64,000 nucleotides of DNA from contig CAYNNB010000002.1 in the NCBI GenBank assembly GCA_964398425.1, positions 7,511-71,510 of the forward strand, read 5' to 3'. The notes beneath the pieces were generated by a model. It made no database searches. It worked only from the letters and a program-made list of their open reading frames with translations, and was not told where the DNA came from. Shown piece by piece: positions 37,702 to 50,646 of this stretch. The position numbers and the translations under genes were made by a program. This DNA comes from an uncultured Flavobacterium sp. (lineage in GTDB: Bacteria > Bacteroidota > Bacteroidia > Flavobacteriales > Flavobacteriaceae). The stretch's first letter is position 1; every line of letters starts with the position of its first letter.

Positions 37702-37846
37702 ACTAATTTAATTTCAATATTAATGATGTACAAATTTACAAAGAATTCTAGTGTAGACCCAATACAAAATCATAAAGATTTGTTATTGTTTTTATAGAAA
37801 CTTCTTATTGCCAAAAGAACCTAATATCTTTGCTAAAAATATACAT

Positions 37847-38653
37847 ATGAAAAATTGGTTGTTTTTTTTATTTTTTACTTTTTTACTTCAGGCACAAAAT
37901 GAAAAAGAAATAGAGGTTGTTGTGGTAAAAAAAGCCCCTAAAATAGCTACTGTTTTAAAACGGTTAAATAAACAATTGCTGAAAAATGTTGATACTACAA
38001 CTTATGTTTATCAATTAGATCAACTCAATTTTGAAAACACAGATACCATTATTTCTAGAAATGAAAAACAACTTTTGAAGTTTACTGATTTTGCTGGTCA
38101 ATTTTCTAAAAAAAATGAGGTTGAAAACAAAGACAATTGGTTTACTAAGATTAAAGAAACGTTTAAAGATTATTCCGCAAAAGAGTCCCCAATAGGTTGG
38201 ATTTCTGGTTTTCCTGTACGAAAAAACATTACTATAACAGACTTAGATTTTATTCGAACCACTAGAGGTTATGTCTATAAGGTCGAATGGATTAATGATG
38301 AAGATTTACTAATTTCATTTCAATCTGCTAATTTTTACAAAGGTCAATTTGTAGTAGATAGAAATTATAATTTACTTTCTCTGTCTTATGAAGTTCAAGC
38401 ACCATATCCATTTTATTATACTAGTGATCAGAGTGTAGGAAAGTATCATACCTTTACTTCAAGTTGGATTTACCAGCGCGAGAAAGTAGCTATGACTTTT
38501 GCAATAGTTAAAAAGAAAATGGCTTTAGTTTCTTTGTCAATTGAAGAAAAGTTGCGCGATTTTGTTTTTAACAGATACAATAAAGAGGGTGTAACATACA
38601 CCAAGAAGACTAATTTCTCTACTCAAATAGAATTGTTTAGACGTATTGAATAA
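37847..38653 (+). CDS. Hypothetical secreted protein
   Basis: Signal peptide MKNWLFFLFFTFLLQAQ from the ATG at 37847; no catalytic motif recognised. Confidence 0.7.
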   Translation: MKNWLFFLFFTFLLQAQNEKEIEVVVVKKAPKIATVLKRLNKQLLKNVDTTTYVYQLDQLNFENTDTIISRNEKQLLKFTDFAGQFSKKNEVENKDNWFTKIKETFKDYSAKESPIGWISGFPVRKNITITDLDFIRTTRGYVYKVEWINDEDLLISFQSANFYKGQFVVDRNYNLLSLSYEVQAPYPFYYTSDQSVGKYHTFTSSWIYQREKVAMTFAIVKKKMALVSLSIEEKLRDFVFNRYNKEGVTYTKKTNFSTQIELFRRIE

Positions 38654-38751: not shown

Positions 38752-39903
38752 TCATAACCTAAAAACCTTTAAAAATCTATTCCAAAAGGCTTTAATGAAA
38801 ATACCTTTTGGACATTTGTTAATAACTTGTAAGTCTTCCCAAAGAGAAGTTTCTTCATCAAGAAATTTGAAAATGAGAGCTACTTTTCCGTCATGAAACA
38901 AGGCGCTAAAAATTTGGTTTCCAACTTTATTGTTTTGGTGTAAAATATCAATGAGTAATAAATCATAGAACCAGAATTTATTTTTGGTATGAAACTGTCT
39001 AAAATCGGTATTAGTTTTAGTAAATGCACTAAGCTTTTTAGCTCTTTTATAGGCACTTTTAAAGGTGTACCCCGTGCTGGCTTTAGTCCATCCTCCAGCT
39101 GATCCAATATGAATGATATTTGCTGTATTGTGCTTCCAAAAAGGATAACAGGTCATAGGGATATTGCCTTGTTCTTTCTCAAGTATTTCAAAATGTTGTA
39201 CACCTAAGTCATTTAGGTAATGTGTAATGGCTTGCTCATATTCCTCTTTAGGTAGAAGGTCTTTAGAAAATAAGGTATATTCAATAAGTGCTTCATTTTT
39301 TGTGTTAGGCAGAACATACATGAATCGGGTATTACCTTTTTGTTTGATAGAAAAATCCATGAAGGTTGGGCAATTCTCTGTGAATACAGCTTCTTTCGTT
39401 CGCACTACCCATCCTATAAAATGTTGTTGAACTAAGGGGAATTTAGTTTGTGAAGCTACCCAATCGGGGTTGTAGATGCTATTAAAAACGCGATTACAGG
39501 TGTAGAGTTGTGTATTAGTTTTTACTGTGCAATAGGTGCCAAGTTCTGTCACATCAATTACTTTTTGATGGGCAAAGTGAACGTTTGGATGTTGTTTAGC
39601 TAGATTGTAGATGAATTGGTAAAAAGAGCTGCTTCTCAGTTTTTTATAACGGTAAGGATGAAGCAACATTTGTTGTGTATGTGTATTGTCTTTAAACCAT
39701 GCTTTTAGCCAAATTTTCTCTGCTTGTTTGTCAAATAAAGAAGAAGAGTCCCAAAAGCACCAAGTACGGTCGTTAGAGTTTTTTATTTCTTGATCTATGA
39801 TAAGGATAGATGAATCTTTCAAAAAAGGGTCTTCAAGGAAATGGTAAAGAGTGAGCAGAGCAGCTAGTCCGCCTCCTGTGAATATGTAATTATAGTGTTG
39901 CAT
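38752..39903 (-). CDS. Lycopene cyclase family protein (CrtY-like)
   Basis: GGGLAAL FAD motif, NDRTWCFW, MDFS, RFMYVLP, EYTLFS, EQGNIPMT and GWTKASTGY. Confidence 0.82.
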   Translation of the reverse strand: MQHYNYIFTGGGLAALLTLYHFLEDPFLKDSSILIIDQEIKNSNDRTWCFWDSSSLFDKQAEKIWLKAWFKDNTHTQQMLLHPYRYKKLRSSSFYQFIYNLAKQHPNVHFAHQKVIDVTELGTYCTVKTNTQLYTCNRVFNSIYNPDWVASQTKFPLVQQHFIGWVVRTKEAVFTENCPTFMDFSIKQKGNTRFMYVLPNTKNEALIEYTLFSKDLLPKEEYEQAITHYLNDLGVQHFEILEKEQGNIPMTCYPFWKHNTANIIHIGSAGGWTKASTGYTFKSAYKRAKKLSAFTKTNTDFRQFHTKNKFWFYDLLLIDILHQNNKVGNQIFSALFHDGKVALIFKFLDEETSLWEDLQVINKCPKGIFIKAFWNRFLKVFRL

Positions 39904-39975
39904 AGCTTCTTTTTTGGTAAAATTAGCCTTAAATTTATTTATGAAAAAATTAATATATAGAAAATATTTTCTTGT

Positions 39976-39983
39976 TACCTTTG
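39976..39983 (+). promoter_or_regulatory. -7 promoter element immediately before the 127-aa ORF
   Basis: TACCTTTG ends 4 nt before the GTG start, implying a near-leaderless transcript. Confidence 0.55.
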
Positions 39984-39987
39984 TATA

Positions 39988-40371
39988 GTGAAAAAGTATA
40001 TAACGCTAGCCTTTTTATGTGTGTATTTGTTTTCAATGACTGAAGTTCATCAGCTATTGAAGATGCCTTTATTGGTTGAGCATTACTTAGAACACAAACA
40101 AGAAAACAAACAATTGTCTTTGTTGAGTTTTTTTGAAATGCATTATTTGAATGGGCAACATCTTGATTCAGATCAAGATAAGGACATGCAGTTGCCATTT
40201 AAGAATTTTCAAGACAATCATCCTAATGTTGTTTTAGCTTTACCAGAATCGGTAGAATTTATCCCTCCGTATGTATTTCCTCAAGATGTTATGGTGCTCA
40301 ATTTTAATGAGCATCAAATATTTATTTCCAATTTTTTGACTTCTATTTGGCAACCGCCTAAAATAGCTTAA
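39988..40371 (+). CDS. Uncharacterised His-rich protein upstream of the metal efflux genes; candidate regulatory upstream ORF
   Basis: Hydrophobic N-terminus, then EHYLEH...MHY...QH and C-terminal IWQPPKIA; GTG start. Confidence 0.7.
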   Translation: MKKYITLAFLCVYLFSMTEVHQLLKMPLLVEHYLEHKQENKQLSLLSFFEMHYLNGQHLDSDQDKDMQLPFKNFQDNHPNVVLALPESVEFIPPYVFPQDVMVLNFNEHQIFISNFLTSIWQPPKIA

Positions 40372-40442
40372 TTAATGTTTTTATTTTCGTCCTTTTCAAG
40401 GATGAATGACTTTTTGTATTCATTAATTAAAGTTCTTTATTC

Positions 40443-43400
40443 ATGTTAAATAAAATTATTGAGTTTTCTGTAAAGAATAAACTCATTGTAGCCTTGTTCA
40501 CCCTTGTTTTAATAGGATTTGGTGTGTACAATGTGCAAAAATTACCCATAGATGCCGTTCCTGATATTACCAATAATCAGGTACAAGTTATTACGGTAGC
40601 GCCTTCGTTTGGAGCCACAGATATAGAGCGATTAGTTACTTTTCCTATCGAACAAGCCAATGCTAATATTGCTGGTTTAAAAGAGATAAGAAGTTTTTCT
40701 CGTTTTGGATTGTCTTTAGTAACTATAGTATTTGAAGACCAAGTAGATGTGTACTGGGCTCGTCAGCAGGTGGCAGAGCGATTACAACAAGTTCAAAGCC
40801 AATTACCTCAAGGGATGGGTACGCCAGCATTGGGGCCAATTTCTACTGGACTAGGTGAAATTTATCAATACGTAGTTCGTGCTAAAAAAGGGTATGAACA
40901 AAAGTATGATGAAACTGCATTACGTACAATACAAGATTGGGTTGTTAAGCGTCAATTAGCAGGTGTGAGAGGCGTTGCTGAAGTCAGTAGTTTTGGCGGA
41001 AAATTGCGTCAGGTTGAAATTAGTATTCAGCCCAATAAATTAAATGCTAATGGGATTACTATTACTGATGTCTTTGATGCCTTAGAAAAAAATAACCAAA
41101 ATACTGGAGGAGCTTATATTGAAAAAGAGGCTTCTGTTTTATTCATTCGCAGTGAAGGCTTGATTAAGAATTTGGAAGCGATTGAAAACACTCCAATAAC
41201 AACAAAAGGAGGTGTGCCTTTATATATCAAAGACGTTGCGGAAGTTAAAAATGGATTTGCCACCCGTTATGGTGCGATGTGTTATAATAATGAAGGAGAG
41301 GTAACAGGAGCAATTGTAATGATGTTAAAGGGTGCCAATAGTAGTGAAGTAATTAAAAATGTAAAAGAGCGTATTGAGCAGATTCAAAAAACTTTACCAG
41401 AAGGTGTGGTTATTGAGCCCTTTTTAGATCGAACCAAAATGGTAAATAATGCCATAGGAACTGTTGAGAAGAACTTAATTGAGGGAGCTTTAATTGTTAT
41501 TTTTGTTTTGGTTGTATTCTTAGGGAATTTAAGAGCAGGTTTATTAGTTGCTTCTGTTATTCCTTTGTCCATGTTGTTTGCGATAATAATGATGAATCTT
41601 TTTGGGGTGAGTGGTAACCTAATGAGTTTAGGAGCTCTAGATTTTGGATTAATTGTAGATGGAGCGGTTATTATTGTTGAAGCAGTGATTCATCAAATCT
41701 ATAATCGTCATCAAAAAGAAGAATCGATTCATTTGACTAAAGATGAGGTAAATAAAGAGGTAGAGTCTTCTGCAAAAAAAATGATGAATAGTGCAGTTTT
41801 TGGACAAATCATTATTTTAATAGTCTATCTGCCTATTTTCACTTTACAAGGAATTGAAGGTAAAATGTTTAAGCCAATGGCTCAAACGGTTGCTTTTGCC
41901 TTAGTGGGTGCTTTTATTTTATCTCTTACCTACATACCAATGATGAGTTCAATTGTGTTAAAAAACATAAAACACAATCCGCAACACTTTTCAGAGCGTA
42001 TGATGGCCTTTTTGGAGCGTATTTATATGATTCGTTTAATACAGGCTTTACACAATCAGAAAAAAATTATAATTGCAACTTTTGTAGCCTTTATTGTAGC
42101 CATAGTAGTCTTGTCTCAGTTAGGAGGCGAATTTATCCCTGCTTTAGAAGAAGGTGATTTTGCAGTTGAAACCCGTGTTTTAACAGGAAGCAATTTAAAT
42201 ACGACAATTTCGTCTACTCAAAAAGCTGCAGGTATACTTAAGGCAAAGTTTCCTGAAGTAGAAAAAGTAGTTACTAAAATAGGAAGTGGAGAAGTACCTA
42301 CAGACCCAATGCCTATGGAAGCTGCTGATATGATGGTGATTCTAAAAGACAAAAGTGAGTGGACTTCGGCATCAACTTTTAATGAGTTGTCAGATAAGAT
42401 GTCCGCTGCTCTACAAGATGTGCCTGGAATTACAGTTGGCTTTCAATATCCTGTTCAAATGCGTTTTAATGAGTTAATGACTGGAGCTCGTCAAGATGTA
42501 GTATGTAAAATTTATGGAGAAGATTTAGATACATTATCTAAATATGCTAATAAAGTCGGCAAGATCGTCAATTCTATTAAAGGAGCCAAGGATTTATATG
42601 TTGAACCTATAGGAGGTATGCCTCAAGTAGTAATCGAATACAAACGTAATCTTTTGGCACAGTACCAACTGAATGTTTCTGATGTGAATAAAGTAGTAAA
42701 TGCTTCATTTGCTGGACAAAGTGCTGGATTGTTGTTTGAAGGTGAGCGTCGTTTTGATGTTGTTGTTCGCGTGGATGCGAACCAAAAACAAAATCTACTC
42801 GATATACAGAATTTATTGATACCAACACCTAAAGGGACACAGGTGCCATTGCAAGTACTAGCCGATGTAAACATAATTAATGGACCTAATCAAATCCAAC
42901 GTGAGGATACCAAAAGAAGAATTGTAGTTGGTTTCAATGTACATGATTCGGATGTTCAAACGCTAGTAAATGAAATGAAACAAAAAGTGGAAACTCAAAT
43001 TAAATTTCCTAGCGGCTATTACATTACTTATGGGGGAAGTTTTGAAAATTTAAATGCGGCCAAAGATCGTTTGATGATTGCTGTTCCAGTTTCATTACTT
43101 TTGATTTTCTTGTTGCTTTATTTCGCATTTAAGTCGATCAAACAAGCTCTGTTGATTTATACCGCAATTCCACTTTCTACTATTGGAGGGATTTTATTTT
43201 TAGCTCTTAGAGGCATGCCTTTTAGTATTAGTGCAGGCGTTGGGTTCATCGCTCTATTTGGAGTAGCTGTTTTGAACGGGATTGTATTGATTGCTGAGTT
43301 TAATGCGCAAAGGAAGCATGGTATTTCCGATTTGACCGAGATTATATTAACAGGTACTAAAAACCGTCTCCGACCTATATTAATGACTGCTTTTGTAGCC

Positions 43401-44774
43401 TCTTTGGGTTTTTTGCCTATGGCTATTAGCAACGGTTCTGGGGCAGAAGTACAGCGACCATTAGCTACAGTAGTTATTGGTGGGTTATTAATTGCAACTT
43501 TTTTAACGTTATTTCTTTTACCCATTTTATATATGATATTTGAAAAAAAATCTATCCGTGTTTTATCTAAAAATAGAGTTGTGGCTTTGTTTTTACTATT
43601 TAGCTTTATGGGTATGGCTCAGCAAAAAATGCCTTTAGATAAGGTTATTGAACAAGGATTGAATGCTAATTTAATTCTTAAAAATGACAAACAACGAGTG
43701 GCTGTTGCCCAAGTTATGGTTAAATCAGCTCAAGAAATACCAGCATTTAATTTAGTGGGTGAGTATGGACAATTGAATAGTGCTTTTAATGATAATCGTG
43801 TTGGGATAACACAAAATATTAGTTTCCCTTTTTTAAATGCTAAAAAGAAAAATTGGTACCAAGTGCAAACAGAGTTGGCACAATTGAATTATCAATCTTC
43901 AGAACAAACCATAAAAAAAGCTATTACTCAAACTTTTTATGATTTAATTTATGCTGTGGAACGCGAAAAAGTTTTGCAACAATCGGATTCCATTTATACC
44001 CAGTTTTTAGAAAAAGCTAAATTACGATTACAAGCAGGTGAAACGAACCATTTAGAAAAAAATGGGGCAGAATTAGCCTTAGCTTCTATTAAAGCTGATT
44101 TTAAAAAGAATCAAGAGATGATTTACCAACTTCAATTGCAAATGCAATATTTGTTATCTACCACTGATTGGGTAATGCCTGCTTATACAGATTTGAAAAT
44201 CGAGGGACAAATTGCTGCTGATTTTGAAACTAATCATTTGCGTTTACAACTCATTGAAAAAGAGAAAAGAGCTAATGAAGCGGCGATACAAGTTGAAAAA
44301 GCAGCGTTGTTTCCAGAAATTACCTTAGGTTATTACAGTATGACGATGCAAGGAATGGGGGCAGATGATGTGCAATATGGAAGTGGAGTACGATTTCAGT
44401 CATTTCAATTGAATTTAGGTATTCCTGTTTTTAATGGGGCCAATAGGGCTCGAAGAGCTGCATATAAAATTAATGGGACCATTTTAGCTAATCAATCTGA
44501 ATTACAGAAAAAAGAACTAGAACAAGCTAAGTTGGCTTTTCAAAATAAACATCAAAATGACGTATTGGTTCTAAAAAATTATGAAAGTCAAGTGCTTCCA
44601 GGGGCAAAATCAATGATTAAAACAGCTGATAAACAACTTTTTAAAGGTGAAATTAACTTTATGGAATGGTCGTGGATTATGCAGCAAGCATTAGCCTCAA
44701 GATTAGATTATTTAGAAAAAGTGAAGTCTTATAATGACGCTTTAATTCAGGTATTGTATCCAACTATAAATTAA
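40443..44774 (+). CDS. CzcA/CusA-family heavy-metal RND transporter fused to a C-terminal TolC-like outer-membrane factor
   Basis: LPIDAVPDITNNQVQV, GALDFGLIVDGAVIIVE, RLRPILMT and QRPLATVVIGG in the first ~1030 aa, then ~400 aa of OMF-like helical repeats. Confidence 0.9.
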   Translation: MLNKIIEFSVKNKLIVALFTLVLIGFGVYNVQKLPIDAVPDITNNQVQVITVAPSFGATDIERLVTFPIEQANANIAGLKEIRSFSRFGLSLVTIVFEDQVDVYWARQQVAERLQQVQSQLPQGMGTPALGPISTGLGEIYQYVVRAKKGYEQKYDETALRTIQDWVVKRQLAGVRGVAEVSSFGGKLRQVEISIQPNKLNANGITITDVFDALEKNNQNTGGAYIEKEASVLFIRSEGLIKNLEAIENTPITTKGGVPLYIKDVAEVKNGFATRYGAMCYNNEGEVTGAIVMMLKGANSSEVIKNVKERIEQIQKTLPEGVVIEPFLDRTKMVNNAIGTVEKNLIEGALIVIFVLVVFLGNLRAGLLVASVIPLSMLFAIIMMNLFGVSGNLMSLGALDFGLIVDGAVIIVEAVIHQIYNRHQKEESIHLTKDEVNKEVESSAKKMMNSAVFGQIIILIVYLPIFTLQGIEGKMFKPMAQTVAFALVGAFILSLTYIPMMSSIVLKNIKHNPQHFSERMMAFLERIYMIRLIQALHNQKKIIIATFVAFIVAIVVLSQLGGEFIPALEEGDFAVETRVLTGSNLNTTISSTQKAAGILKAKFPEVEKVVTKIGSGEVPTDPMPMEAADMMVILKDKSEWTSASTFNELSDKMSAALQDVPGITVGFQYPVQMRFNELMTGARQDVVCKIYGEDLDTLSKYANKVGKIVNSIKGAKDLYVEPIGGMPQVVIEYKRNLLAQYQLNVSDVNKVVNASFAGQSAGLLFEGERRFDVVVRVDANQKQNLLDIQNLLIPTPKGTQVPLQVLADVNIINGPNQIQREDTKRRIVVGFNVHDSDVQTLVNEMKQKVETQIKFPSGYYITYGGSFENLNAAKDRLMIAVPVSLLLIFLLLYFAFKSIKQALLIYTAIPLSTIGGILFLALRGMPFSISAGVGFIALFGVAVLNGIVLIAEFNAQRKHGISDLTEIILTGTKNRLRPILMTAFVASLGFLPMAISNGSGAEVQRPLATVVIGGLLIATFLTLFLLPILYMIFEKKSIRVLSKNRVVALFLLFSFMGMAQQKMPLDKVIEQGLNANLILKNDKQRVAVAQVMVKSAQEIPAFNLVGEYGQLNSAFNDNRVGITQNISFPFLNAKKKNWYQVQTELAQLNYQSSEQTIKKAITQTFYDLIYAVEREKVLQQSDSIYTQFLEKAKLRLQAGETNHLEKNGAELALASIKADFKKNQEMIYQLQLQMQYLLSTTDWVMPAYTDLKIEGQIAADFETNHLRLQLIEKEKRANEAAIQVEKAALFPEITLGYYSMTMQGMGADDVQYGSGVRFQSFQLNLGIPVFNGANRARRAAYKINGTILANQSELQKKELEQAKLAFQNKHQNDVLVLKNYESQVLPGAKSMIKTADKQLFKGEINFMEWSWIMQQALASRLDYLEKVKSYNDALIQVLYPTIN

Positions 44775-44780
44775 AAAATA

Positions 44781-45905
44781 ATGAAAAATATATATGTTTT
44801 AGCACTTGTGCTTTTGTTTTTAGGTTGTCAGTCCAAAATAGAACCACAAACCGCAGGTAAGCAAACGGATGAGAATCAAGTTACATTAACGAGTCAGCAA
44901 TTAAAAAATGCTGATTTATCATTAGGAAATATTGAAGAACAAGCCCTTCAAAGTACTGTTAAAGTAAATGGAAAAATAACTTTATCTCCTGAGTCAGTAG
45001 CGAGTGTAAGTATGCCATTAGGAGGCTATGTGCAAGCAATTAAGGTAATGCCTGGGATGAAAGTTCAAAAAGGACAGGTATTGGCTGTTGTTGAAGATCA
45101 AGCTTTTGTTCAATTGCAACAAGATTATTTGACAACTAAACAACAATTGACTTTCGCAACCAAAGATTATCAACGTCAAAAAGAACTCAATGCTTCACAA
45201 GCGAGTAGTGATAAAAGTTATCAATTAGCAGAGAGTGAATGGGCGAAATATAAAATCACACTCAAGGCTTTAGATGAAAAATTACGTTTAATACATATTA
45301 ATCCAGCAACATTAACAGAAAATAGCATTTCTAAATCGGTTCGTATTTTGGCTCCCATTTCTGGTATGGTTACCCAAGTTAATATAAATATAGGTAAATA
45401 TATAACAGCGACTGATGCATTATTTCAATTAATGGATAACACTAGTATGTATGCACAATTACAAGTATTTGATAAAGATGCTGCCCTTTTGCAAATAGGT
45501 CAGCCAGTAACGGTTTTCACTAATGCTCAACCTAATGTGAAGTATACTACAGCAGTTGCTTTTGTAAATAAAAATTTTGAAGCCCAATCAAATGCGATTG
45601 AAGTCTATGCAAAAATTAATAATCGTACTAACACATTGATTCCAGGAAATTATGTTAATGGCGTAATTGAGTTAAATAACGCTCATGCTTTTGTAGTGCC
45701 AAATGATGCGGTTGTTCATTTTGAAGGTAAGAATTATGTTTTTATTCAAACAGAACCTTTAGTATTTGAAATGGTTGCAGTTCAAACAGGAATTGTTACA
45801 AAAGAGGTGATTGAAATCAGGAATTATGAAGCTCTAATAGGGAAAAAAATAGTTATCAAAAATGCCTATACAGTTTTAATGGCTTTGAAAAATAAAGAAG
45901 AATAA
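44781..45905 (+). CDS. RND periplasmic adaptor subunit (CzcB/CusB-like), lipoprotein
   Basis: Lipobox LFLGC, lipoyl-like hairpin (GMKVQKGQVL ... APISGMV) and C-terminal AVVHFEGK. Confidence 0.9.
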   Translation: MKNIYVLALVLLFLGCQSKIEPQTAGKQTDENQVTLTSQQLKNADLSLGNIEEQALQSTVKVNGKITLSPESVASVSMPLGGYVQAIKVMPGMKVQKGQVLAVVEDQAFVQLQQDYLTTKQQLTFATKDYQRQKELNASQASSDKSYQLAESEWAKYKITLKALDEKLRLIHINPATLTENSISKSVRILAPISGMVTQVNINIGKYITATDALFQLMDNTSMYAQLQVFDKDAALLQIGQPVTVFTNAQPNVKYTTAVAFVNKNFEAQSNAIEVYAKINNRTNTLIPGNYVNGVIELNNAHAFVVPNDAVVHFEGKNYVFIQTEPLVFEMVAVQTGIVTKEVIEIRNYEALIGKKIVIKNAYTVLMALKNKEE

Positions 45906-45973: not shown

Positions 45974-48010
45974 TTAAATTTTGTAGCGTATTCCAAAGAA
46001 TCCTCTTCTACCTTGATTAGGAGCATAGACGTAACTAGGGTCAAACGTTAAGGCATAAGGATTGTTAGGTGTGGCTAGTACATTTCCATTAGTGTCGTAT
46101 TGTATATTTTGATCAAACGGATCATTAGCTCGTGCAATAAGAAAAGGGGTGTTTTTATTTGGTGTCCAATTCAGAATGTTTTTTATGCCACCATAGATTT
46201 CAAATCCCCCCCATTTTTTATAGTTCAATTGAATGTTTTGGATACTCCACCAAGGAGAATTTGGGCTTCTTGGGTCTAGTTGGCCTAGAAGCGGCAAACG
46301 CATAGGACTGTAAGCATTGCCAGTATAATCCAAACTGATATACCAAGAAGGAATATCATAACTCAATGTCCAATTAGCACTCCATTTTTCGGTAAGAATA
46401 GGTCGTGTTTTGATGTTATTTTCTACTTTATAGTTCTCCATATAAGTGGCGCCAACTATTGCTTTTAATCCGAAGCTAGATACGTAATCTAAATTTAAAT
46501 TGACACCCTTAGTTGTGGCATAGCCTTTTAGATTTTGGTATATAATAGCATTTGGGTTAGTGTCATAATTTGGTTGTATTTGATTGTAAAAGTACGTGTA
46601 CCAAACGGATGTTTCAAGAGTAAGTAAGGAATAATCTTTGAATCGAATTTTTCTTGTATAGTTTGTATTAGCATTAATTGATTGTTCTGGTTTAAGATTT
46701 TCATTAATGATTACTTCTCTTGAACCAGTTAAAGCAGCATGCTCTTCAGTAAATAAATTCACAACACGAAAACCAGTCCCTGAATTAAATCGGATACTGT
46801 TCTTTTCGTTCCATTTAAAGCGATAAGCCATTCTTGGGGTTTGGATCCAGCCGTGATTGTTATTATAGTCTAAGCGATAGGCAAGCATTAACTTATGTTT
46901 GGGATTCAATACTATTTCGTTTTGAATAAAAATACTTCCTATTTGTAGGTGTTCAGCATTATTTGTAGCGGATGTGTTATCGTTGTAATATTGGTATCGA
47001 TGGGCAAGTCCAATTAATAGGTCTTGATTTAAAAATGTCTTGTTCCAAGTTAATTGATTGAAACTAATTTGTTGATTGGCCAAATAAAAGACATGACCAT
47101 AAACTGAATTCTGTTCGTGATTAGTAAATGAGAACGAAAAATTTATGTTCTCTTTAAAAGGTAAACCATATTTTGCGATAATTTCTTGTCTCTTAGTATA
47201 AATACTTTCTCCATAAATTGCTGTGCCTCCTCTATAAGATTTGTTCCATTGCATTTGCCCGCCCCATCGGTCTTCATAAAAAAATCGCCCTGCCAGTGTT
47301 AGCGTTTTGTTACTTTTTCTAATGACATTCCATTTATTAAAAATAGAGATGCGTTCTTGTAAAGTTACATCGGTAAATCCGTCATGATTATTATCTATGG
47401 GAGAATTATAGTTGAAATAATTTAGCCCAAGTAAGGATTGCGTTTTTTTACCAATTTGGAATTTATATCCTAAATCTAAGTTGTTTTCTAACCAAGAAGT
47501 AGTGAAGAAATCAACTGATATAAGAGGAGCGTTTTGGGGTGATTTGGTAATGATGTTTATCAGTCCCCCAACAGCTTCACTGCCATACAATGTAGAAGCA
47601 GGTCCTTTTATTATTTCAATTCGATCGATAAGTGCATTGGGAATTCCAGACAAACCATATACAGTTGACAGTGCACTAACAATGGGCATTCCGTCGATTG
47701 TAACCATGGTATAAGGTCCTTCCAAACCATTGATATGAATGTCACCCGTATTGCAAATGTTGCAATTGAGCTGTGGACGAACCCCATTTATGCTTTGTAG
47801 TGCTTCAAATAAATTAGAAGTAGGATTCTTTCTTAAGAAGGTAGCTGTATAAATTTCAACTGGGACAAGAGTTTCGCTTCTTAATACAGGCTTTAATGTA
47901 CCAGAAACCACAATTTCATCTATTCCTTTTTCATTGTTGGTGATACTGTCTTTTTTTTGTGACCAAGTATAATTTGTAATCAGAATTAGAAATATATATT
48001 TTTTTATCAT
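45974..48010 (-). CDS. TonB-dependent receptor, probably for a metal
   Basis: TonB-box-like EIVVSGT, plug with RIEIIKGPASTLYGSEAVGGLINIIT and NCNICNTG; barrel ending RRGFFGIRYKI. Confidence 0.88.
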   Translation of the reverse strand: MIKKYIFLILITNYTWSQKKDSITNNEKGIDEIVVSGTLKPVLRSETLVPVEIYTATFLRKNPTSNLFEALQSINGVRPQLNCNICNTGDIHINGLEGPYTMVTIDGMPIVSALSTVYGLSGIPNALIDRIEIIKGPASTLYGSEAVGGLINIITKSPQNAPLISVDFFTTSWLENNLDLGYKFQIGKKTQSLLGLNYFNYNSPIDNNHDGFTDVTLQERISIFNKWNVIRKSNKTLTLAGRFFYEDRWGGQMQWNKSYRGGTAIYGESIYTKRQEIIAKYGLPFKENINFSFSFTNHEQNSVYGHVFYLANQQISFNQLTWNKTFLNQDLLIGLAHRYQYYNDNTSATNNAEHLQIGSIFIQNEIVLNPKHKLMLAYRLDYNNNHGWIQTPRMAYRFKWNEKNSIRFNSGTGFRVVNLFTEEHAALTGSREVIINENLKPEQSINANTNYTRKIRFKDYSLLTLETSVWYTYFYNQIQPNYDTNPNAIIYQNLKGYATTKGVNLNLDYVSSFGLKAIVGATYMENYKVENNIKTRPILTEKWSANWTLSYDIPSWYISLDYTGNAYSPMRLPLLGQLDPRSPNSPWWSIQNIQLNYKKWGGFEIYGGIKNILNWTPNKNTPFLIARANDPFDQNIQYDTNGNVLATPNNPYALTFDPSYVYAPNQGRRGFFGIRYKI

Positions 48011-49353: not shown

Positions 49354-50538
49354 TTATTGTAATAAACTAGATCCTTCAACTGTTGACCAAGCTCCATTGG
49401 TTATACTAGCACCTGTTGAAGTTGTGCTAGTTGTAAATTGACCTGAAGGGAAGTTAACTACTACTGAACCAGCACCTTTATAATTTGTTGTTGAACCAGT
49501 AATTTTTACATTTGTCAACTTAATTTTTGATCCATTAACTTGGTTGGTGTTTGTAGTTGCATCTTGAATTTTACAACCTGTTCCTTCATAAGTTGTACCA
49601 TTGTTTGAGAAGCTACCATATCCCTCAATAACGATGTTGTTAAAATCTCCATTTCCTTCTTTTTTAAATTGGAAAGCATCAATTTCAATTGAAGAAACAT
49701 CTTCAGGTACACAGCTAGCATTTCTTTTTAAAGTAATATTGCTGATTACTGGCCAATAATTATTGTTGTTAGAACAAGCTTCAATTTCCATTCCGAAATT
49801 TCCTTTTCCAACTTGGTAAGCATACCAATTTGAGTTGTTTTGTCCTTTCCATCCATCTTGCCAGTCAAAAGCATCATCAAAGTTACCATAAGAAATTGCA
49901 TTAGTCATACTTACTGTCCCACCAAAGAATTCATACCCATCATCAGCACCTTTATAAGCAACTAAGTGATCTAAAGTTGTATTAGAACCAACAGAATAGA
50001 AAGTAAATGAATTAGTTTCTTTTTGTCCATCGGCAATTTTTTTTCCAGCATATTCAACTCTTACATATTTTAATGTACCGCTGTTATCTGCACTATCAGT
50101 TCCTCCGTAAGTAATGTTTGAACCGTCTTCAGAGATTGCAGTTGAAGCGCCTCCAATTGCATTAATTGGAGCATCTCCTACTATCATAATTCCTGACCAA
50201 GAGCCTGGTACTTTTGATAATTCAGTGAAAACAATTGGTTGGTCAGCAGTTCCTATTAAATTAATTGTACCTCCGTTTTCAACAATTAATCCATTGTCTG
50301 TTGAAGCTGTTTTGTCAATTGTAATTACACTTCCAGCAGCAATTGTTAATGTAGCTCCTGGTTTTACTCTCACTACACCTTTTAAGTTGTAGTTTCCATA
50401 AGCATAACTCACATTTCCGGTAATTTCTCCTTGAATTGTTCCTGTTGCAGGTCCATTTGTCTCTTCATTATTGTCGTCTTTTGAACAACTTGTAAAGATT
50501 AAAGATAAAGCAGTTAATCCTAAAAATAGTTTTTTCAT
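49354..50538 (-). CDS. Surface lipoprotein with beta-helix-like repeats, TonB receptor partner
   Basis: Lipobox IFTSC followed by acidic SKDD; motifs SGTLKYVRVEYAG, DDGYEFFGGTV and DDAFDWQDGWKG. Confidence 0.78.
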   Translation of the reverse strand: MKKLFLGLTALSLIFTSCSKDDNNEETNGPATGTIQGEITGNVSYAYGNYNLKGVVRVKPGATLTIAAGSVITIDKTASTDNGLIVENGGTINLIGTADQPIVFTELSKVPGSWSGIMIVGDAPINAIGGASTAISEDGSNITYGGTDSADNSGTLKYVRVEYAGKKIADGQKETNSFTFYSVGSNTTLDHLVAYKGADDGYEFFGGTVSMTNAISYGNFDDAFDWQDGWKGQNNSNWYAYQVGKGNFGMEIEACSNNNNYWPVISNITLKRNASCVPEDVSSIEIDAFQFKKEGNGDFNNIVIEGYGSFSNNGTTYEGTGCKIQDATTNTNQVNGSKIKLTNVKITGSTTNYKGAGSVVVNFPSGQFTTSTTSTGASITNGAWSTVEGSSLLQ

Positions 50539-50646
50539 TTTTTTTAATTTTATTGATTGTTGTTTACGTTGCAAATATCTTAGGAGTGAATTAATTGAGT
50601 ATTTAATTAATATTAATTAATTATAAAATATTTACTTGCGGTATTA

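Follow-up and report, generated by a model that had tools for sequence, protein, structure and literature searches.

A conserved small open reading frame upstream of czc efflux operons of Bacteroidota: a candidate metal-sensing arrest leader peptide on a predicted leaderless mRNA

The DNA analysed here (hereafter, the window) comprises 64,000 nucleotides (nt) of contig CAYNNB010000002.1, positions 7,511 to 71,510 of the forward strand, from the assembly GCA_964398425.1 of an uncultured Flavobacterium sp. It contains an operon of czc type for metal efflux, the first cistron of which is a small open reading frame (ORF) encoding a protein of 127 amino acids; this ORF is the subject of the present work. 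The coordinates of all features are given in Table 1. An earlier description of the locus, made from the nucleotide letters without database searches (the sequence-only reading), presented the ORF as near-leaderless, with a -7 element 4 nt before the GTG, and its product as having a hydrophobic N-terminus, a His/Glu/Asp-rich middle part and an I-W-Q-P-P motif three codons before the stop, with czcA starting 71 nt further on. The window bears out each of these points: the -7 box (39976-39983) precedes the GTG at 39988; the translation carries EHYLEH, MHY and QHLDSDQDKD after a hydrophobic N-terminus; I120-W-Q-P-P124 is encoded at 40345-40359 and followed by K-I-A and TAA; and 71 nt separate this stop codon from the start of the fused gene czcA-tolC.

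Table 1. Features of the small ORF, the intergenic region and the czc operon; coordinates are those of the window unless a locus is named
Feature	Position	Strand	Remarks
-7 promoter box (Bacteroidota sigma-A) TACCTTTG	39976..39983	+	Fits the consensus TAnnTTTG; 4 nt between box and GTG
Small first cistron of the czc operon	39988..40371	+	GTG start, TAA stop (40369-40371), 127 amino acids, begins VKKYITLAFLCVYLFS; candidate sensor/arrest leader peptide
Signal-peptide-like N-terminus, residues 1-18	39988..40041	+	M/V-K-K, 12-residue hydrophobic core, [S/A/T/G]16-x-T18, then E19
His/Asp/Glu domain, residues 19-72	40042..40203	+	H32-x-x-E35-H36, F48, H52-Y53, D60, D62, D66, L69-P70-F71-K72
Spacer, residues 73-113	40204..40326	+	Sequence variable, length fixed
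Arrest-like module, residues 114-125	40327..40362	+	S-x-[Y/F/H]-L-S-x-I-W-Q-P-P-[K/R]; Pro-Pro codons 40354-40359
Helix 5' arm UUAAUUAAUG	40368..40377	+	Overlaps the last sense codon and the stop; possible extension from 40360; minimum free energy (MFE) fold, duplex geometry
Inner 9-bp hairpin	40386..40406	+	Followed by U-run 40411-40415; terminator-like; could be attenuator or helix clamp
Helix 3' arm CAUUAAUUAA	40421..40430	+	12 nt remain to the czcA AUG, or 3 nt if the pairing extends to 40439
czcA-tolC fused gene	40443..44774	+	1443 amino acids; ACR_tran and OEP (OEP from residue 1065); pump of the heavy-metal-efflux resistance-nodulation-division (HME-RND) type and outer-membrane factor
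czcB-type periplasmic adaptor (membrane-fusion protein)	44781..45905	+	TIGR01730/HlyD_D23
Inserted multi-pass membrane ORF of ~165 amino acids (MNPTHIHLLLNHFPI...)	L008:6465-~6960, L036:6474-~6975, L067:6458-~6955		81-90 nt after the small-ORF stop

The product of czcA-tolC scored 1148 bits against TIGR00914 (CusA/CzcA). With a CusA/CzcA permease, an outer-membrane factor and a membrane-fusion protein, all components of an efflux operon of the HME-RND (CzcCBA) type are encoded. Transmembrane helix 4 of CzcA bears the residues DFG...DGA...VE, which suggest a pump of the divalent-cation class (Nies 2003). The sequence occurs in metagenome and metatranscriptome contigs only; a single metatranscriptome contig, which gives no 5' end and may derive from DNA carry-over, covers 39700-40500 and is compatible with co-transcription.

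The first homologue search with the small-ORF protein returned 166 homologues. A profile search of 1.84 billion representatives at E≤1e-3 yielded 2,575 clusters at 50% identity, and at least 569 species were positive when one genome per species was scanned. The family is carried by Flavobacterium, Chryseobacterium, Pedobacter, Mucilaginibacter, Arcicella and a large number of Chitinophagaceae; cultivable carriers are Flavobacterium terrigena DSM 17934, Pedobacter cryophilus, Flavihumibacter fluvii and Chryseobacterium balustinum with plasmid NZ_CP033935. Wherever a member has an annotation, it reads 'hypothetical protein'. Pfam and NCBIfam scans of the window protein and of 134 members produced sub-threshold noise and no family model, an Rfam scan of 39850-40550 detected no element, and neither a sequence search of the PDB nor Foldseek against the PDB found a relative of the protein among solved structures. 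Two members lie in records titled uncultured Bifidobacterium sp. (L080) and Phycisphaerales bacterium (P0275); members with labels from outside the Bacteroidota are most likely binning errors rather than a true occurrence outside the phylum. Conservation figures given below refer to an alignment of 134 sequences reaching ~30% identity, locus statistics to 80 fetched loci (L001-L080), codon statistics to 75 loci, and statistics of the intergenic helix to 62 loci with a short gap before czcA.

The order small ORF, czcA, tolC, czcB on one strand was found in 78 of the 80 loci, the remaining two being contig ends. Eleven extra loci obtained by exact protein look-up have the same downstream gene wherever enough DNA is present, and a plasmid of Chryseobacterium balustinum carries the same module, in which a hypothetical protein is followed by a 'CusA/CzcA family' gene. 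In 62 loci, 52-130 nt separate the small ORF from czcA; the gap widens to 190-300 nt in about a dozen others and to ~575 nt in three. The next gene downstream is always czcA, except in three loci where a membrane ORF without a Pfam match is inserted (Table 1); degraded remnants of this ORF are all that is present in L020 and L021. The sequence-only reading had asked whether a position directly upstream of metal RND or TonB genes is conserved; the position before an RND pump is, and an association with a TonB gene of the kind known for CruR was not seen in any locus. On the upstream side, a TonB-dependent receptor gene on the same strand ends 40-120 nt 5' of the small ORF in L085:1-660 (Flavihumibacter fluvii CP092333) and in L089:1-579.

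The N-terminus of the protein is a putative Sec signal peptide, the column statistics of the alignment being in line with the -3/-1 rule; its uncharged run is 15 residues long in 88 of the 134 members, too short for a stable membrane helix. The following His/Asp/Glu domain (residues 19-72) is presumed to be a metal-binding sensor, judging by its conserved residues. H32, H52, Y53, L69 and P70 are invariant in the alignment, as are P123 and P124 near the C-terminus, and a further set of columns is 90-99% conserved (H36, F71, D66, K72, K25, Q122, T18, I120, W121, D62, P27, F48, E35). No conserved Cys was found in the mature part of the aligned members, where His, Asp and Glu residues are conserved instead. 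An amino-terminal copper/nickel-binding (ATCUN-type) site, NH2-E-x-H after signal cleavage, was considered and dropped, H21 being kept in just 59 of the 134 members. In the AlphaFold model, helices 26-39 and 45-54 have a predicted local distance difference test score (pLDDT) above 90.

The spacer combines a nearly unconstrained sequence (residues 76-113, mean column conservation ~0.2) with a fixed length. The distance from LPFK to the first proline of the C-terminal motif is 50-54 residues in 254 of the 258 proteins having both motifs, and 51-52 residues in 79%.

The sequence-only reading had made its proposal dependent on conservation of the QPP motif among homologues, and this conservation holds: the two prolines are invariant, I, W and Q are each 94-96% conserved, and the K/R that follows is near-universal. 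A xxxPPx pattern lies in the last 14 residues of 266 of 269 proteins. The rare variants (IFQPP, ILQPP, VWQPP, IWNPP, IWHPP) never alter PP. The tail after K/R consists of two residues in 68 of the 75 loci, and 43 of the 134 aligned members end in Cys (PPKxC-stop; for example, L009, L010, L014, L016). At the nucleotide level, Ile is encoded by ATC, ATT or ATA, Gln by CAA or CAG, both prolines by all four codons, and K/R by seven codons. Every degenerate codon position varies freely, which excludes a nucleotide-level cause of the motif; since synonymous codons vary while the residues stay, the motif is selected as peptide. The small ORF is a real, conserved and peptide-selected gene, far beyond chance expectation. 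The codons of W-Q-P-P (UGG CAR CCN CCN, 40348-40359 in the window) are self-complementary, and a UGGC/GCCA hairpin appears here in many per-locus folds; it is probably a by-product of the codons. Neither IWQPP nor WQPPK led to a relevant paper in a full-text literature search.

An exact TAnnTTTG lies 4-7 nt 5' of the first codon in 49 of the 80 loci, most often at a spacing of 5 nt. Since the G of the -7 box is at -5 in F. johnsoniae (PMC6847099), the operon transcript is predicted to start at the first codon or 1 nt before it, that is, to be leaderless, and this arrangement would be family-wide. Such a layout would leave no room for a riboswitch in a 5' untranslated region, and the small ORF would therefore be the first thing translated on the operon mRNA. 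In flavobacteria, only ~5% of transcripts are leaderless (PMC9723704). As first codon, TTG is used in 42 loci, GTG in 14, ATG in 13 and CTG in 10. A non-AUG start on a leaderless mRNA is unusual and may represent either weak initiation by design or an unfamiliar initiation mode of Bacteroidota.

Between the Pro-Pro codons and the czcA start, the transcript can form an RNA helix, the evidence for which consists of per-locus folds with shuffle and permutation controls. The 151-nt region of the window folds at z = -2.8. In most short-gap loci, the 5' arm sets in 4-12 nt behind the first Pro codon, and the 3' arm stops 0-10 nt short of the czcA AUG. The per-locus folds place the start of the 5' arm at 6-10 nt, counted from the first base of that codon, with the arm running across the stop codon. 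At least five closing pairs are present in the MFE fold of 53 of the 62 loci, the average being 12.2 pairs versus 4.15 in dinucleotide shuffles. Compared with shuffles of each locus's own 3' window, the mean duplex z-score is -1.59 (p about 1e-11). Cognate arms pair at -9.0 kcal/mol versus -6.4 kcal/mol for non-cognate arms, with none of 10,000 permutations equally good. For the variable 5-mer just ahead of the stop, a Watson-Crick complement lies 5' of the AUG in 24% of cognate versus 6% of non-cognate pairs (0 of 5,000 permutations), and compensatory pairs are seen across loci: CUUG/CAAG, CCUG/CAGG, GCCUG/CAGGC and GUCUUG/CAAGAC. Where a terminal Cys is present, its TGT/TGC codon is also part of the 5' arm.

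Two explanations of such a helix differ in what it should follow. Under pure termination-reinitiation coupling, the helix should track the stop codon, while for a ribosome that pauses at PP and invades the helix it should track PP. The two can be separated in loci with a tail of 4-8 residues after PP, in which the stop lies at +18 to +30 from the first proline (Pro1). In these loci (L002-L005, L084, L087, L089, L091, L093, L094) the 5' arm begins at +4 to +12 from Pro1, which is 7-25 nt ahead of the stop codon; L091 shows this most clearly, with the stop at +30 and the helix start at +5. The helix is positioned relative to PP, not to the stop codon. In L067 it closes on the AUG of the inserted gene rather than that of czcA, and therefore the module controls whichever cistron follows. 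Folds, shuffles, permutations and PP anchoring together support an intergenic stem-loop that occludes the downstream initiation region, a trait of CutF type. Bacteroidota have no Shine-Dalgarno (SD) sequences, and their initiation is tuned by structure between -20 and +20 (PMC6847099); therefore, the helix would hide an unstructured landing zone and not, as in CutF, an SD sequence.

By analogy with the metal-sensing arrest upstream ORFs (uORFs) CutF and CruR, the small ORF could be both the sensor and the leader cistron of a leaderless czc mRNA; this is the preferred reading, judged about evenly balanced between right and wrong. The nascent chain would be targeted to SecYEG and exported co-translationally. 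With the ribosome at P123/P124, peptide-bond formation would slow, and the 52 residues behind the peptidyl-transferase centre would just span the tunnel and the translocon, the His/Asp domain having just emerged into the periplasm. If this domain bound a divalent metal (Zn, Co, Cd or Ni), the pause would change in length. The paused ribosome, covering the mRNA to about +15 nt, would melt the 5' arm (40360/40368-40378): when its P site holds Pro1, it would unwind 5-10 pairs at the start of the AU-rich helix of 10-15 bp. The open helix would free the SD-less initiation region of czcA, and the pump would be made. Without the pause, termination at 40369-40371 would let the helix re-form, and initiation at czcA would be low. 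Metal is assumed to lengthen the pause and so to raise pump synthesis, an assumption based on the analogy to CutF and on the fact that an exporter is being regulated.

The support for this mechanism is comparative. The sequence-only reading had proposed a His-liganded analogue of QPP type coupling translation and metal to efflux. Its motif is conserved and stands before the pump in 78 of the 80 loci, whereas stall, metal binding and export, as well as the action in cis, are inferred from the sequences. The fixed spacer, the co-varying helix anchored at PP and the family-wide predicted leaderless layout strengthen that interpretation, which is partly supported.

Several observations weigh against the proposed mechanism. 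QPPK on its own is a weak pause in E. coli, where PQPPK served as the amide control beside the non-pausing PNPPK, the drop in translation tracked an acidic residue at -2, and just 2.8% of PPX motifs pause even without elongation factor P (EF-P) (PMC4140641); therefore, any arrest must rely on the context S-x-Y-L-S-x-I-W, on force or on metal. The predominantly TTG, GTG and CTG starts on a leaderless mRNA may mean that the small ORF is poorly translated. K/R125 and the frequent C-terminal Cys are conserved, though they are added after the proposed arrest point. As to the helix, its absolute duplex energy is no better than that obtained with a GC-richer window inside czcA; it is weak or unclear among the long-gap loci (190-300 nt, about 15 of the 80); and RNAalifold gave no consensus structure for 48 gaps aligned with MAFFT, since the 3' arm is shifted in register from one locus to the next. 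The AlphaFold model is fairly confident overall (pLDDT 83, predicted template modelling score 0.55), including the spacer (pLDDT 67-88), and a stable folded protein is therefore possible.

Such a protein would be an exported or membrane-tethered metal-binding accessory of the pump, similar to CzcI, CusF or a chaperone, in which IWQPPK is a C-terminal docking or structural motif and the helix provides ordinary translational coupling. The invariant His/Asp ligands and the confident helical N-terminal domain agree with this explanation, as do the moderate pLDDT across the spacer, the residues conserved beyond the proposed arrest point, the weakness of QPPK as a pause, and the strict co-occurrence with one pump type only, as expected for a subunit. 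However, a spacer of fixed length and near-random sequence is unusual in a folded subunit, simple termination coupling does not predict a helix set by PP rather than by the stop, and the leaderless mRNA with mostly non-AUG starts suggests a low output. The protein also has no structural or sequence relative among solved proteins, and CutF, whose layout is the same, cannot be detected in cells and exerts its effect in cis only (PMC9973294). The accessory protein is considered rather unlikely as the explanation, although an accessory function is compatible with an additional regulatory role.

The inner hairpin of the window raises the question of control at the level of transcription, in which a pause or translation of the ORF end would block an intrinsic terminator (40386-40406 and the U-run) or Rho loading, as in CruR or TnaC. 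Hairpins followed by a U-run are enriched in the gaps, occurring in 19 of the 62 short-gap loci versus 3.7 expected from shuffles, which counts against purely translational gating and makes a transcriptional layer possible, perhaps as attenuation in a subset of loci; CruR itself acts through Rho-dependent termination. As a general explanation, control of transcription is nevertheless improbable: the hairpin is present in only about a third of loci, the window stem has 3 G-C pairs with 4 nt between stem and U-run, and the gaps are AT-rich with few C, making a poor rut site. A ribosome at PP covers the mRNA to ~40369, 17 nt short of the hairpin, and therefore could not directly stop its folding; the feature conserved family-wide is the helix reaching the AUG region.

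Metal RND operons are normally under two-component or MerR/ArsR-type control. No regulator gene lies beside the czc operon in the window, as the sequence-only reading had remarked; the flanking genes are a divergent lycopene cyclase gene upstream and a convergent gene of a TonB-dependent receptor downstream (45974-48010, minus strand), directly after czcB. The ORFs 37808-38653 (plus strand, 281 amino acids) and 49354-50574 (minus strand, 406 amino acids) near the operon have no Pfam family at E≤1e-3. An inverted repeat ATGA-N6-TCAT was found ~25-40 nt upstream of the -7 box in seven loci (L008, L020, L021, L034, L036, L057, L059); it is confined to loci of the Ginsengibacter/Hanamia type and represents either an operator of a transcription factor or plain relatedness within the clade. 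A distant transcription factor, acting for example via this repeat, could control the pump, with motif and helix unrelated to each other and the small ORF a passenger of unassigned role. The usual control of metal RND operons and the clade-specific repeat upstream of the promoter speak for such a factor, while the window has no adjacent regulator gene, and it is difficult to see why the PP position, the tail length and the helix start should be conserved together across families of Bacteroidota unless they are functionally linked. This explanation is regarded as very improbable.

The proposed sensor and leader function has its closest parallels in CutF and CruR, in which a signal peptide, a metal motif, a fixed spacer and a C-terminal proline motif make downstream expression metal-dependent. 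CutF of Rhodobacter capsulatus (cutFOG) is, like the small ORF, shorter than 150 amino acids and located directly upstream of a metal-homeostasis gene on the same strand. Both have a metal-ligand motif (presumed in the family described here), a spacer of ~45-52 residues and a C-terminal proline motif, and the putative signal peptide of the family would correspond to the Sec-type signal of CutF. In CutF, an intergenic stem-loop hides the downstream start region, and its melting by the paused ribosome has been proposed (PMC9973294; bioRxiv 10.1101/2025.02.05.636593), and the family has the same layout. The differences concern the ligand motif (CxxxC in CutF, His/Asp/Glu in the family), the proline motif (a PPP-rich stretch versus I-W-Q-P-P), the target (a multicopper oxidase versus an RND pump of Czc type) and the mRNA, which is predicted to be leaderless in the family, unlike that of CutF.

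CruR (Bp2923) of Bordetella pertussis, a DUF2946 protein, is likewise a small uORF with a metal motif at the head of a metal-related operon, and it is exported. For CruR, the arrest at P-P was shown in vitro, with the two prolines in the P and A sites (PMC9426467; PMC12992588). It differs from the family in having CXXC and R-A-P-P, a TonB-dependent importer as target, and Rho-dependent termination over an unstructured C-rich gap of 162 nt, with copper relieving the arrest; the family, by contrast, has a structured, AT-rich gap, an exporter as target and a motif without Arg. None of the 134 aligned members has Arg at -2 or -3 of the motif, in contrast to the RAPP/RGPP pattern of ApdA, ApdP and CruR. 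The spacing between CXXC and RAPP in DUF2946 is 45±2 residues, and a 45-residue spacing is discussed for CutF; the fixed spacer of the family (50-54) parallels that of DUF2946.

Homology to DUF2946 was rejected. The DUF2946 profile was represented by the SilD family of pMOL30 (PF11162 annotations), against which hhalign gave 6.6%, over the signal peptide only; the window protein had no match at E≤1 in Pfam, including PF11162. Stray sub-threshold matches among the 134 members were to DUF2946 (one member, E = 0.035) and DUF6660 (two members, E = 0.01). CzcI itself matches DUF2946 at no better than E = 0.026 and SilD not at all, which shows how loosely the set called 'CutF-like' is defined. CzcI of Cupriavidus metallidurans, encoded upstream of czcCBA and suspected to be a regulator, is also a small exported protein containing His and Cys before a Czc RND operon, but it has no C-terminal PP, weak similarity to DUF2946 and none to the family.

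Other arrest peptides share single traits with the module. The selected peptide FxxYxIWPPP (Tanner 2009; Woolstenhulme 2013) and the uC_KYxIW uORFs upstream of yidC also have Ile-Trp before the prolines and an aromatic residue further upstream. Arrest by FxxYxIWPPP requires F, Y, I and W, and it is barely, if at all, relieved by EF-P. The family motif differs from this peptide in the Gln between W and P, in having two prolines and in the aromatic residue at -4 from Ile (not -2/-5), and FxxYxIWPPP is artificial and was tested in E. coli only. SecM, MifM, VemP and ApdA/ApdP resemble the family in layout, with an export signal at the N-terminus, an arrest module near the C-terminus that lies a few codons ahead of the stop, and a downstream stem-loop controlling the next cistron, although in the family the signal is putative and the arrest a candidate one. 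They monitor Sec/YidC, regulate components of the translocon and have other motifs (RAGP, RAPP).

A 2023 survey collected 5,334 rule-based 'CutF-like' proteins, 19% of them from Bacteroidota and with ACR_tran among the downstream neighbours (PMC9973294); the family may be part of this list without having been described. The survey of RAPP/RGPP uORFs in EMBO J 2025 did not find copper-related uORFs of that type in Bacteroidota, and the Nat Commun 2024 survey found in Bacteroidota only Sec-related, Pro-stop uORFs. The sequence-only reading called the locus an undescribed system, which is too strong, as the principle was already published for CutF and CruR. The family is apparently an analogous, non-homologous, His-based and Bacteroidota-specific counterpart of these sensors, with a new candidate arrest motif.

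A more specific proposal is offered tentatively, as quite possible rather than probable. IWQPP would represent a convergent, Bacteroidota-specific class of natural arrest motifs, unrelated in sequence to DUF2946, SecM or RAPP; the His/Asp domain would sense periplasmic divalent metals during export; and the SD-less pump cistron would be gated through the PP-anchored helix on a leaderless mRNA with mostly non-AUG starts.

Because the spacer has a fixed length of 52 residues and the helix is anchored at PP, a few point mutants would suffice for a direct test of the hypothesis. If it is true, metal sensing by a nascent exported peptide would extend from proteobacterial copper systems to efflux of the Zn/Co/Cd type, and to a phylum that initiates translation without SD sequences and whose gene regulation is poorly understood. 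I-W-Q-P-P with the upstream S-x-Y-L-S would join the few natural arrest motifs on which structural studies of the peptidyl-transferase centre can draw. Annotators would gain a name and a model for a so far unnamed family with more than 2,500 clusters, and control would be explained for thousands of czc operons of Bacteroidota without a neighbouring regulator gene.

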